From: Idiomarina loihiensis L2TR
Lineage (GTDB): Bacteria; Pseudomonadota; Gammaproteobacteria; Enterobacterales; Alteromonadaceae
Direction: 5' to 3'
Length of the DNA stretch: 32,000 bases
Assembly (NCBI RefSeq): GCF_000008465.1
Contig: NC_006512.1
Coordinates: forward strand, 2,160,001 to 2,192,000
Shown here: positions 26,075-28,957 of the stretch, one piece after another
Layout of the letters: each line of letters starts with the position of its first letter
How positions within the stretch are numbered: position 1 is the stretch's first letter
Made by a program: the position numbers and the translations under genes
Notes under the pieces: model-generated
Databases searched by the model: none
The model's input: the letters and a program-made list of their open reading frames with translations, nothing else
What the model was told of the DNA's origin: nothing

Positions 26075-26512
26075 TTAGGTGAGCAATTCAACTTGCGGAT
26101 AATGCGTTTTGAAAAATTCGCGGACTGAACCGAGCTGCTGAATGGGGAATAGATGGTCACTCGAGACTTGATAATTAAAAGGGAACTGTAAAATAGCGTA
26201 TTCCTCGTCGTATTCGCCCACCGCTACGCGTTTCAGCTTTTTATTGGGGACTTGTTCCAACCCAACACGTAACTTTTCACCATTAACATCCAACAAAGTC
26301 ATGATATTTTTAACTTTGTTCTGCTCTCGATCTCTGGGGCTAATGAGCGACGCAGAGGCAACGATTACGGCTACGAACAAAACTGCAAATCCCTGGCCGA
26401 TAAAGTGCAAGACCATAAAGTAACTAAGGTAAATGGTTAATAACCAGAGCCAAGCAGGAATGCCTTTGGTTTTCCGGGCCAGCCTCGCCCTAACGGTTTG
26501 TTCTTTATACAT
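26075..26512 (-). CDS. Small 2-TM membrane protein with an ~85-aa soluble C-terminal domain, family not recognised
   Basis: 145 aa. It has a basic N-terminus (RARLARKTKG), two hydrophobic helices (IPAWLWLLTIYLSYFMVLHFI and GFAVLFVAVIVASASLI), then a soluble domain. The ATG at 26512 is 3 nt after the stop of the upstream NERD gene. Confidence 0.7.
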   Translation of the reverse strand: MYKEQTVRARLARKTKGIPAWLWLLTIYLSYFMVLHFIGQGFAVLFVAVIVASASLISPRDREQNKVKNIMTLLDVNGEKLRVGLEQVPNKKLKRVAVGEYDEEYAILQFPFNYQVSSDHLFPIQQLGSVREFFKTHYPQVELLT

Positions 26513-26515
26513 CTT

Positions 26516-27223
26516 TCAGCTCGTCATTTGTTTAAGTTCTATTAATTGTTGAACGACTTTCTCAACATTTGACGGTGCCCGTTTGGGCTGATAATTCAAA
26601 ATATACTCGACCAATCCTTTACGTTCAAGAACGGGAACGCTGGGAGGTGAAGACAGCTTAACCCGTGCGCTGCGGTGTGAGAAAAACACAACGCCGTCTA
26701 TCCATATAGATGCGCGGTTTTTCTTCAAATGCTCTGCCAATACATGTATTTGCTTTTTTAACTGCTTTATTGGATTCCGAACTTTGGCTGTATACCGGCC
26801 ACCTTTGCGGCCCACTTTATGGGCTATCCAATTAGGAGATTGCTCATCTCCCGTTACTTTTGAGTTGTTGTTTTTCACTTCCACAACAAACACACCGTTA
26901 GGGCCCACCACGATTAAATCCAGCTCAGTAAAGCCTCGTTTTGCTCGTGGGTTGGGTACGTCAACCTGGTTAAACAAAATATAGCTATCAGGGAGCTTCT
27001 CTAAAAGCTGCAGTGTTTTTAATTCGCCTCTGGCACCCGAACGCCTAGTAGATGCCGCCCCAATAATACTGAAGAGGTAAATTAGCCCGACAATCCACCA
27101 GAAGTTTGGTAATTTGTACATTAAAAAGCCCGCAATAGGTGCGCCAATAATAGCGACCCATACGCGGGCTTTATTCACTTCTTGCGAAAGACGATTTTTG
27201 GTTATGTACTGCGTGTCGGCCAT
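26516..27223 (-). CDS. Membrane-anchored NERD (nuclease-related) domain protein
   Basis: 235 aa with two N-terminal TM helices (VWVAIIGAPIAGFLMY and FWWIVGLIYLFSIIGAA). The NERD-type signature follows in order: GARGELKTLQLLEKL, ELDLIVVGPNGVFVVEVKN (PD-(D/E)xK-like D..ExK), SPNW, RNPIKQLKKQ. Confidence 0.8.
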   Translation of the reverse strand: MADTQYITKNRLSQEVNKARVWVAIIGAPIAGFLMYKLPNFWWIVGLIYLFSIIGAASTRRSGARGELKTLQLLEKLPDSYILFNQVDVPNPRAKRGFTELDLIVVGPNGVFVVEVKNNNSKVTGDEQSPNWIAHKVGRKGGRYTAKVRNPIKQLKKQIHVLAEHLKKNRASIWIDGVVFFSHRSARVKLSSPPSVPVLERKGLVEYILNYQPKRAPSNVEKVVQQLIELKQMTS

Positions 27224-27261: not shown

Positions 27262-27293
27262 ATTAAACCACCAAAGCCGTCATTCGTCAGCTT
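27262..27293. repeat. 32-bp perfect direct repeat, copy 1 (ATTAAACCACCAAAGCCGTCATTCGTCAGCTT)
   Basis: Identical to 28392-28423. It extends to about 38 bp with 2 mismatches. It ends 6 nt short of the stop codon of the RhuM/Fic gene (27300-27302) and lies 38 nt upstream of the NERD gene ATG. Confidence 0.95.
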
Positions 27294-27299
27294 CAATTC

Positions 27300-28382
27300 T
27301 TAGTTATCGGCAGGCTCCTTAAGGAGAATAAAATGTTCTACCAAACGAATCATCAACTCTTTTTGGTTTGGTAAGCTCTCGGCTACTAATAGTGCCAAAG
27401 CCACTAGCGTGTTGTCGTTAATCAATTTTTCAACGGGCTTAGCTAACAAGTGCTGATTTAATCGCAAATACCACAAAAATAGGAAAGAGCCCGAGCGTTT
27501 ATTACCGTCTGCTAAGGGGTGATTCTTGATAACAAAGTACAACAGATGGGCAGCTCGGCTTGCTATGTTGGGGTAAAACAACTCACCCGCAAAACCTTGC
27601 TCTATTGTAGCCAATGCCGAAGAAAGCCCGTTGCCACGAACCTGTCCGAATAACTCAGTGGCTTCGCCTTTAGTTATAAGTGTTTTTCTAAGCTGTTGAA
27701 TGGCATCGGTTGCGTTATCCGGATCCAGAGCCTGCATACCATTTTGTCTGGTACCTATTTCCGCTAAAACTTGCTCGTCATAACCTTGCAGCAGTGACCA
27801 GGAACGAGCGTACTCACTTATAACCTGAGCAACGGCTTCACCAGCTTCAGATACCAAGCCTTGGTTACTCAGTGTACGACTGAGTAGATTTAGAGCCTGC
27901 TCAAACTCAACGCCCCGCTCTTGCAGCCGACGTTGGTTTAGAGTGTAGCCTTCAACCAGGTGCTCTTTTAATATTCGCGTTGCCCATTGGCGGAACTGTG
28001 TCGCGCGTTTAGAGCTCACGCGGTAGCCCACAGAAATAATGGCATCAAGGTTGTAATGTTTTACGCGACGGCGGACTTGTCGTTTACCTTCTTGCCGAAC
28101 TACCGAGAAATCCTCGGTAGTTGCCATTGCTTCCAATTCACCTTCCCTATAAATATTCTTCAGGTGCAAACCAATGTTATCAGTCGAGGTATTGAATAGT
28201 AATGACATCTGAGTCTGGTTCAGCCAAACCGTATCCTGTTCCAAAGCCACTTCCAGTTGTGCCTGCCCATCCTGACTCTCAAATATCTGAACTTGCTTGT
28301 TGTTCATGCTTCGTTTCTCATCCTTGAGCTTGATGTTTTCACTAAACGTTCCAGCATAGTCAGCATTTCTTCTTTCGGCCAC
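27300..28382 (-). CDS. RhuM-family N-terminal domain fused to a Fic/DOC domain (Doc-type motif)
   Basis: The N-terminus QIFESQDGQAQLEVALEQDTVWLNQTQMSLLF...YNLDAIISVGYRVSSKRATQFRQWATRILKEHLVEGY is RhuM-like. The C-terminus has HPLADGNKR (27521-27495). The start is either the GTG at 28382 or, more likely, the ATG at 28307 (MNNKQVQIFES). Confidence 0.85.
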   Translation of the reverse strand: MAERRNADYAGTFSENIKLKDEKRSMNNKQVQIFESQDGQAQLEVALEQDTVWLNQTQMSLLFNTSTDNIGLHLKNIYREGELEAMATTEDFSVVRQEGKRQVRRRVKHYNLDAIISVGYRVSSKRATQFRQWATRILKEHLVEGYTLNQRRLQERGVEFEQALNLLSRTLSNQGLVSEAGEAVAQVISEYARSWSLLQGYDEQVLAEIGTRQNGMQALDPDNATDAIQQLRKTLITKGEATELFGQVRGNGLSSALATIEQGFAGELFYPNIASRAAHLLYFVIKNHPLADGNKRSGSFLFLWYLRLNQHLLAKPVEKLINDNTLVALALLVAESLPNQKELMIRLVEHFILLKEPADN

Positions 28383-28391
28383 AATGATTTC

Positions 28392-28423
28392 ATTAAACCA
28401 CCAAAGCCGTCATTCGTCAGCTT
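28392..28423. repeat. 32-bp perfect direct repeat, copy 2
   Basis: Identical to 27262-27293. It ends 7 nt short of the stop codon of the 99-aa gene (28431-28433) and lies 9 nt upstream of the GTG at 28382. Confidence 0.95.
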
Positions 28424-28430
28424 TAATCCC

Positions 28431-28730
28431 TTACTGCTTTTGCCTTATTGCCTCAATCAGTTCGTCTTTTGTCATTTCGCTGCGGTTAGCAATATCAAGC
28501 TGTTGCGCCCTATTGTATAACTCATCTTTGGTGCGCTCTTCCAGCCGGGTATTGGGGTTACCTGTCCCCTGAGTAGTGGTGTTATCGGTAAGCCCCTCTT
28601 CGCGTCGCTGCTTATTCACAGTGCGGCTGGCAATTTCCTCTGCTTCATCTTCACTTTTTCCGTCATCCAGCTGAGACTGCTTAATATGCTGATACATACG
28701 CTCGTCTTTGTCGCGCCAAACGTCTGGCAT
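28431..28730 (-). CDS. Small charged protein with a C-terminal Rho_N/SAP-like helix motif
   Basis: 99 aa with a perfect SD AAGGAGG 5 nt upstream of the ATG at 28730. The C-terminus LEERTKDELYNRAQQLDIANRSEMTKDELIEAI resembles the Rho termination factor N-terminal (SAP-like) motif. The N-terminal half is weakly ChaB-like (EEIASRTVNK). Confidence 0.7.
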   Translation of the reverse strand: MPDVWRDKDERMYQHIKQSQLDDGKSEDEAEEIASRTVNKQRREEGLTDNTTTQGTGNPNTRLEERTKDELYNRAQQLDIANRSEMTKDELIEAIRQKQ

Positions 28731-28759: not shown

Positions 28760-28957
28760 TTACTGAGAGTCCCGGCCACGTTGCTCTGGGGCTATCTGCT
28801 TATCTTTCTGCGAGTGAGTGTCATGAGTTGAATTTGGCCGACGGTGGTCTTCACGGCTCTGGTTTTCTTTGTCCTGCTGTGATTGCAGCTTCCGCTTTTC
28901 TTCTTCGCTAAGATCTTGCTCGTCTTTTTTAATTTTCGGATTCATTGGCCCAGTCAT
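28760..28957 (-). CDS. Small, highly hydrophilic, probably disordered protein (65 aa), unassigned
   Basis: Perfect SD AAGGAGG (reverse complement of 28962-28968) 4 nt upstream of the ATG at 28957. Composition is dominated by K/E/D/Q/R/S. The gene ends 29 nt upstream of the 99-aa gene. Confidence 0.55.
   Translation of the reverse strand: MTGPMNPKIKKDEQDLSEEEKRKLQSQQDKENQSREDHRRPNSTHDTHSQKDKQIAPEQRGRDSQ

Follow-up and report, generated by a model that had tools for sequence, protein, structure and literature searches.

A tightly spaced pair of membrane-protein genes in Idiomarina loihiensis

The 32,000-nucleotide (nt) stretch of Idiomarina loihiensis L2TR analysed here (RefSeq assembly GCF_000008465.1, contig NC_006512.1, forward-strand positions 2,160,001 to 2,192,000; referred to below as the window, with positions counted from its first nucleotide) carries a pair of closely spaced genes on the minus strand at 26075–27223. 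The first of these (26516..27223) encodes a 235-residue protein with a two-helix transmembrane (2TM) hairpin followed by a nuclease-related domain (NERD), and the second (26075..26512) encodes a 145-residue membrane protein with a basic N-terminus, which we refer to as the partner. A first-pass annotation made from the sequence alone had proposed that they work as a two-gene unit, with the partner gating or neutralising the nuclease, and a tight, seemingly coupled pair of similar membrane proteins beside a candidate defence gene does resemble a new two-gene abortive-infection system. Our comparison of related loci leads us instead to favour, with a probability of about 0.68, two independent genes that were joined by deletions in a variable Idiomarina locus rather than a module, with the first gene encoding a stand-alone membrane-tethered NERD nuclease.

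The two open reading frames (ORFs) are present with the coordinates and lengths originally given, and the sequence agrees with the very short gap described between them: the NERD stop codon (26518–26516) lies 3 nt from the partner ATG (26512–26510), and this junction (TGA-AAG-ATG, 26510..26518, minus strand) reads ...ACG AGC TGA AAG ATG TAT... in the coding direction. We infer translational coupling of the two genes at this junction in the window.

The first gene encodes a predicted membrane-anchored nuclease

The NERD assignment of the 235-residue protein is solid. Pfam NERD (PF08378) covers residues 62–182 (26678..27040, minus strand) and model positions 1–111 of 111 with E=8.7e-26 and 91.1 bits (cutoff 22.1), and the motifs SGARGELKTLQLLEKL, TELDLIVVGPNGVFVVEVK and NPIKQL were all found in the protein. 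In an alignment of 28 homologues with identities down to 28%, residues G63, G66, E67, D102, E115, K117 and Q154 were invariant, which amounts to the full GxxGE...D...ExK...Q signature and bears out both the complete NERD-type signature reported earlier and the conservation of the catalytic D/E/K residues that had been proposed as a check. E67 is encoded at 27023–27025 and the catalytic core, D102...E115-x-K117, at 26873–26920 (both minus strand). A profile search with the family alignment against PDB sequences returned nothing at E<=0.01.

Hydropathy analysis placed hydrophobic segments at residues ~19–35 and 38–54/57 of the NERD protein (hairpin residues ~19–57; 27053..27169, minus strand) with K/R-rich stretches on both sides, including three basic residues in the N-terminal flank and four in the 15 residues after the hairpin, and this hydrophobic N-terminal region is kept across the family. 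Similar segments were found in the partner at residues ~18–34 and 41–57 (~26342–26461, minus strand), again between K/R-rich stretches, so that the hairpins and basic flanks attributed to both proteins were borne out and an N-in/C-in topology is predicted for each. The first gene's product is probably a membrane-anchored PD-(D/E)xK-type nuclease.

The best homologues of both proteins come from Idiomarina, and the NERD protein is 96% identical to a 'nuclease-related domain-containing protein' of Idiomarina piscisalsi. The ratio of non-synonymous to synonymous substitution rates (dN/dS) for the NERD gene was 0.03–0.11, indicating purifying selection close to that seen for the neighbouring suhB (~0.02), and the partner gene is also under purifying selection with dN/dS ~0.24. 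We also note a 16-nt inverted repeat (26487–26502 / 26889–26904; 94% complementary, with arms 386 nt apart), one arm of which lies at the 5' end of the partner gene and the other over the GPNGV codons in the NERD core; roughly estimated, ~0.07 such pairs would be expected by chance in the 3.6-kb region.

The partner belongs to a rare orphan family

By its sequence, the partner belongs to an orphan family of the Gammaproteobacteria that is very rare. When 1.84 billion representatives were searched in full with HMMER, only 28 hits emerged, from Idiomarina, Aliidiomarina and Chromatiales. The protein has no match among the families of Pfam, NCBIfam, PADLOC or PHROG, and no member of its own family carries a precomputed Pfam domain. 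The soluble domain of ~85 residues that had been noted after the hairpin (~26078–26329, minus strand) is confirmed and highly conserved: 40 columns are invariant in an alignment of 17 sequences, and the consensus is LRVGxEQVP-KKLKRVAVGEY...FPFNYQ...FPIQQL. The transmembrane (TM) region, by comparison, diverges fast.

An AlphaFold2 model of the partner built from 31 diverse sequences reached a predicted local distance difference test (pLDDT) score of 87 overall and 90–98 for the C-terminal domain (an input of 17 close homologues gave pLDDT 52). In this model an N-terminal amphipathic helix is followed by the two TM helices, ~seven short strands, a helix at residues 124–137 and a final strand. 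This 2TM hairpin with a small beta-strand domain and a C-terminal helix is reminiscent of the bacterial PH proteins (bPH, YcxB and DUF3093), and one UniRef record calls a partner homologue 'YcxB-like'. The weak and non-significant top Foldseek matches are mostly PH-like folds (Spt16M, Pob3, Sec3 PH, Rtt106 and talin F3). In contrast to recognised members of that group, the partner is an orphan by sequence: DUF3093 scored 16.1 bits against a cutoff of 23, none of the 17 partner members matched Pfam bPH or YcxB at E<=10, Foldseek searches of PDB and BFVD gave no match at E<=0.001, and a profile search of PDB sequences gave only TM-helix noise with E>1. We therefore treat bacterial-PH identity as a lead and not as a result.

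Two other identities for the partner were considered and rejected. A PilZ-like or cyclic di-GMP-binding role, prompted by its overlap with a GGDEF gene in other strains (see below), found no Pfam or fold support, and a holin-like role was suggested by a lone weak BhlA match in one of the 17 members that we do not consider credible.

The pair is not conserved across Idiomarina loci

Comparison with about a dozen related loci (numbered L001 upwards where they need to be told apart) showed that the two genes are often separated. The clearest case is I. abyssalis, where the gene order is Rho_N–NERD–DUF3545 and the partner ORF is precisely missing. DNA alignment reveals the partner as a clean ~440-bp indel: the flanking DNA is ~93% identical as far as the final codons of NERD, and the match resumes exactly at the partner stop codon. 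The I. abyssalis NERD protein is 94% identical to that of the window, and its gene is intact and under strong purifying selection (dN/dS 0.05). As this NERD gene is intact and selected without the partner, the partner is not an essential antitoxin.

The converse was seen in other loci. In I. aminovorans (L082, 3537–4004) the NERD gene has suffered an in-frame loss of residues 77–151, and in L103 (1984–2412) an in-frame loss of residues 108–199; in both cases the catalytic core is removed and the TM hairpin, the C-terminal tail and an intact downstream partner gene are kept. Judged from the sequences, these two deletions are independent natural knock-outs of the predicted nuclease. In L105 the partner sits between trxB and ald, an unrelated housekeeping locus, and there is no NERD gene in the 8.3 kb covered. 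The partner gene therefore persists independently of NERD, and its function does not depend on it.

In a third group of loci both genes are present and other genes stand between them. The order in I. piscisalsi CP022133 is NERD–SDR–CHASE/GGDEF–partner, with the partner start overlapping the GGDEF stop by 4 nt. A 4-nt overlap with a CHASE–GGDEF (diguanylate cyclase) gene is what L081 (2661–4456) and L103 (2636–4432) show, although in L103 a frameshift splits the GGDEF gene; the partner is thus tightly joined to whatever gene stands upstream of it. In L099, L102 and L104 a gene on the opposite strand, encoding a 187-residue multi-TM protein, stands between NERD and partner, with a further ~180-nt spacer in L099 and L102; as a result the two genes cannot share a transcript there. 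This intervening gene lies on the minus strand (L099, 3240–3803; L102, 3199–3762; L104, 350–913) and is conserved in several strains, and its product has no PADLOC match.

Direct adjacency as seen in the window recurs in L098 and in L083–L085, and the junction itself varies by lineage: the spacer is 12 nt long in L083, and in L082 the genes overlap by 4 nt. The partner in L083–L085 is only 58% identical to that of the window (the NERD protein of L083 is ~88% identical), and these loci have gained a HicAB pair. The retention of a short-spacer adjacency by three lineages that have diverged from one another (those of the window, of L098 and of L083–L085) counts against our view that the genes are independent, and may reflect a lineage-specific functional link between NERD and partner. 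Comparison of the window pair (26075–27223) with L098 (3290–4438) gave a synonymous divergence (dS) of 0.60 for the NERD gene and 0.11 for the partner, a difference of ~five-fold, which suggests separate histories for the two adjacent genes and would fit the partner gene alone having recombined or been replaced.

Neither family was found beside the other outside Idiomarina

Orthologues of the 2TM-NERD protein in other genera (45–50% identity, with the same length and the same N-terminal motif) were monocistronic in each of the six contexts we examined, where the next gene was on the opposite strand in five and on the same strand 625 nt away in the sixth, and no homologue of the partner was found in any of them. 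Among the matches listed, a hidden Markov model of the partner likewise had no hit in any of 79 more distant NERD loci drawn from across bacteria and archaea. Approached from the other side, three distant relatives of the partner (P0058, P0061 and P0068) are single genes with no NERD gene nearby. Co-occurrence of homologues elsewhere was the test that the first-pass annotation had set beforehand for its two-gene unit, and the two families were not found together outside Idiomarina. This absence and the broken linkage within Idiomarina mean that the pair is not a conserved unit.

These observations bear directly on the possibility that, at least in the window's own lineage, the genes form a membrane-associated module for defence or abortive infection in which the partner senses or gates the NERD nuclease or serves as its immunity or antitoxin protein. 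It is an attractive possibility given that the genes share a strand with only 3 nt between them, that their adjacency recurs in other lineages despite the divergence of both proteins, that both products have the same 2TM-plus-cytoplasmic-domain layout, and that the locus gathers toxin–antitoxin (TA)- and defence-like genes (RhuM/Fic PDC-S23, HicAB and HipA-like). We nevertheless consider it very unlikely, as each gene is found intact and conserved where the other is missing or has lost its core, the opposite-strand gene in three loci precludes co-transcription, the partner overlaps a GGDEF gene instead in L081 and L103, and co-occurrence fails from both the NERD and the partner side. Neither of the properties that would mark a TA module was found: conserved co-occurrence and co-orientation across genomes is contradicted by a linkage that is broken in at least five ways within Idiomarina alone, and a toxin gene that cannot persist without its antitoxin is contradicted by the intact I. 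abyssalis NERD gene.

We favour instead an origin of the 3-nt junction through the loss of intervening genes between the cytochrome-b/Rho_N genes and DUF3545–suhB, and the tight spacing in the window would then be explained because genes were lost in a locus that has repeatedly gained and lost cargo. Under this explanation the partner, with its 2TM hairpin and ~85-residue beta-rich domain capped by a helix, would normally be a single gene that acts independently of NERD. The NERD protein would be a stand-alone nuclease tethered to the inner membrane by its N-terminal helical hairpin with the NERD domain facing the cytoplasm, where E67, D102, E115 and K117 would bind a divalent metal and the enzyme would cut nucleic acid near the membrane. 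The likeliest substrate would be foreign DNA or RNA entering or replicating at the membrane, and the protein would provide single-gene defence or exclusion with no need of a dedicated partner.

Membrane-anchored NERD proteins and the case for a defence role

Further analysis of the NERD family suggests that stand-alone TM-NERD proteins are a widespread architecture. One or two hydrophobic segments were found upstream of the domain in 70 of 75 distant relatives with the GxxGE motif (crude hydropathy counts made on longest-ORF models), all 75 keep D...ExK, and such TM-NERD relatives come from the Bacillota, Bacteroidota, Bathyarchaeia, Thermoplasmata and Gammaproteobacteria. A scan of a species-representative collection (185,579 species) returned mostly distant NERD proteins and only one close homologue, from Idiomarina, among the matches listed.

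Of the six orthologue contexts, two are clear defence islands with integrases. The first (L088) includes KwaA/KwaB (KwaB 6e-119) and an integrase, with a GajB-like UvrD helicase just upstream of the NERD orthologue, and in the second the NERD orthologue lies near AbiEii, a CBASS operon and an integrase. A further context carries a resolvase. We note that the 609-residue UvrD/GajB-like helicase in the first island ends 69 nt upstream of the 2TM-NERD orthologue (L088, 2103–4699), and by analogy the two may represent a split pair corresponding to the fused Nhi-like/PDC-M16 proteins. The family spans Idiomarina and unrelated Gammaproteobacteria, where it is found beside Kiwa, CBASS and AbiE. The 2TM-NERD protein might by itself be an unlisted single-gene defence system, in which a nuclease tethered to the inner membrane degrades the nucleic acid of phages or plasmids where it enters, and in the lineage of the window the orphan joined to it by deletion may have become a new regulatory partner; we regard this more specific proposal as possible, if doubtful.

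Other observations weigh against a defence role. The remaining three contexts resemble housekeeping neighbourhoods (enolase/DivIC/GH57, pntAB and LysR/MarR, respectively), the NERD protein has no phage matches and, of 72,556 plasmid records, hits just three, all of them large plasmids, no full-length PADLOC model matches it, and its gene is syntenic across several Idiomarina species and strongly conserved, with a dN/dS near that of suhB. Most of these are also points in favour of the main rival to a defence role, namely that the protein is a chromosomal housekeeping or envelope factor or a membrane-proximal enzyme for processing host DNA or RNA. The precedent here is SmdA of Staphylococcus aureus, a NERD-like protein of cell morphology and cell division with one TM helix, which is essential and in which several of the most conserved NERD residues are missing (PMC9040797). 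SmdA resembles the Idiomarina protein in being membrane-anchored and monocistronic with a cytoplasmic NERD-like domain (a topology predicted in our case), and differs from it in having a single TM helix and in being essential, whereas the Idiomarina protein keeps all of the conserved NERD residues and is dispensable. The gene has been inactivated independently by core deletions in two Idiomarina lineages, its distribution is patchy, as seen in the species-representative scan, and orthologues elsewhere sit in integrase-bounded defence islands. A housekeeping role is therefore unlikely in our view, although it is to be taken more seriously than a two-gene module. A role in defence or exclusion is weakly supported by this evidence and is the most likely one for the NERD protein, though far from proven; we infer its nuclease activity and substrate as well as this role.

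The earlier statement that the pair is no named defence system held up. The partner had no PADLOC matches, and PADLOC and NCBIfam matches of the NERD protein were confined to the NERD modules of larger proteins (PglW, MkoA, MAD6, PDC-M16A and a DRT helicase), with PADLOC E-values of 4e-12 for PglW and 3e-7 for MkoA and an NCBIfam E-value of 2e-18 for MAD6. As full-length proteins these fall far below cutoffs (MAD6 66 bits against 460 and PglW 41 against 990), and the window protein does not belong to the PglW, MAD6 or MkoA families. It shares a homologous NERD domain with these and with the Nhi-like PDC-M16 proteins, but those are 600–1600 residues long with kinase or helicase domains, act in multi-gene systems, and align with the NERD protein only over their N-terminal ~100–160 residues. 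Mokosh type I and Nhi-like systems contain NERD domains (PMC10952713), which is one of the hints of a defence role for the family. Our literature search turned up neither a single-gene TM-NERD defence system nor this pair.

A further hint is offered by a close functional parallel, ZwsA (Zowangsin), a stand-alone RNA endonuclease of the NERD type that protects against RNA phages and that loses its activity on mutation of E535, D567, E580 or K582 (bioRxiv 10.64898/2026.04.06.716636). It is likewise a stand-alone effector, and its E535/D567/E580/K582 pattern corresponds to E67/D102/E115/K117 in the window protein when the two are likened by residue pattern and spacing alone. ZwsA differs in being a large soluble multidomain protein (VHS, DUF647, NERD and S4), whereas the window protein has 235 residues, a TM hairpin and no RNA-binding domain.

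By architecture, the nearest relatives are the single-domain NERD proteins with an N-terminal membrane anchor (PF08378; Grynberg & Godzik 2004, as cited in PMC9040797). Like the Idiomarina protein, these are ~210–300 residues long, have one or two N-terminal helices before a GxxGE...D...ExK...Q core, and are encoded by single genes. The subfamily made up of the Idiomarina proteins and their orthologues of 45–50% identity is set apart by its MA(D/N)TQY(I/V)-NRL N-terminus and by a conserved ~50-residue C-terminal extension. To our knowledge no member of this architecture has a demonstrated function.

Genes and repeats around the pair

Read 5' to 3' on the strand of the pair, the locus begins with a cytochrome-b gene (Ni_hydr_CYTB family), an opposite-strand DUF2805 gene, a 65-residue ORF and a 99-residue Rho_N gene, and continues with a RhuM+Fic/DOC gene, NERD, the partner, DUF3545, an opposite-strand suhB, trmJ and the isc operon. 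The surroundings of the pair contain no tRNA gene and show no marked change in GC content. The 99-residue protein (28431–28730) has a C-terminal Rho_N/SAP-like domain and is, like the 65-residue protein (28760–28957), small, highly charged and encoded on the minus strand upstream of the island, with both conserved in several Idiomarina loci.

The RhuM and Fic/DOC gene (27300..28382, minus strand; Pfam RhuM and Fic) is a PADLOC candidate defence gene, PDC-S23, with E=2e-170, and forms a variable insertion outside the pair that is missing in I. abyssalis (L001), L081 and L102. It is bracketed by a 36-nt direct repeat (27262–27297 and 28392–28427, 97% identity) that occurs as a single copy in the Rho_N-to-NERD intergenic region of the three loci without the gene, and it looks like a cassette-type insertion with target duplication. 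We rejected the idea that this repeat forms a structured element of the attC-like or terminator type, as its fold was no better than that of shuffled sequence (z=0.37). The same interval carries the HicAB genes in L083 (4455–5065), and a 424-residue protein in L102 (44–1318) was read as HipA-like from its sequence alone. The cytochrome-b to suhB interval thus appears to be a hot spot where cargo of TA and defence type gathers (RhuM/Fic, HicAB and HipA-like genes in different strains), and this company is another hint of a defence role for the NERD protein.

Implications for the Idiomarina proteins

Where a single genome presents what looks like a coupled two-gene system, about a dozen related loci expose the pair as what is probably an accident of deletions, and we see no reason to clone the two genes as a unit. 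The partner is of interest on its own account as a member of a very rare orphan family with a confident domain model and no significant structural neighbour. The TM-anchored single-domain NERD protein belongs to an architecture which appears to be widespread in bacteria and archaea and which retains a complete nuclease signature, and for this architecture the Idiomarina subfamily, with two natural core-deletion knock-outs and relatives in defence islands, may offer a test case.

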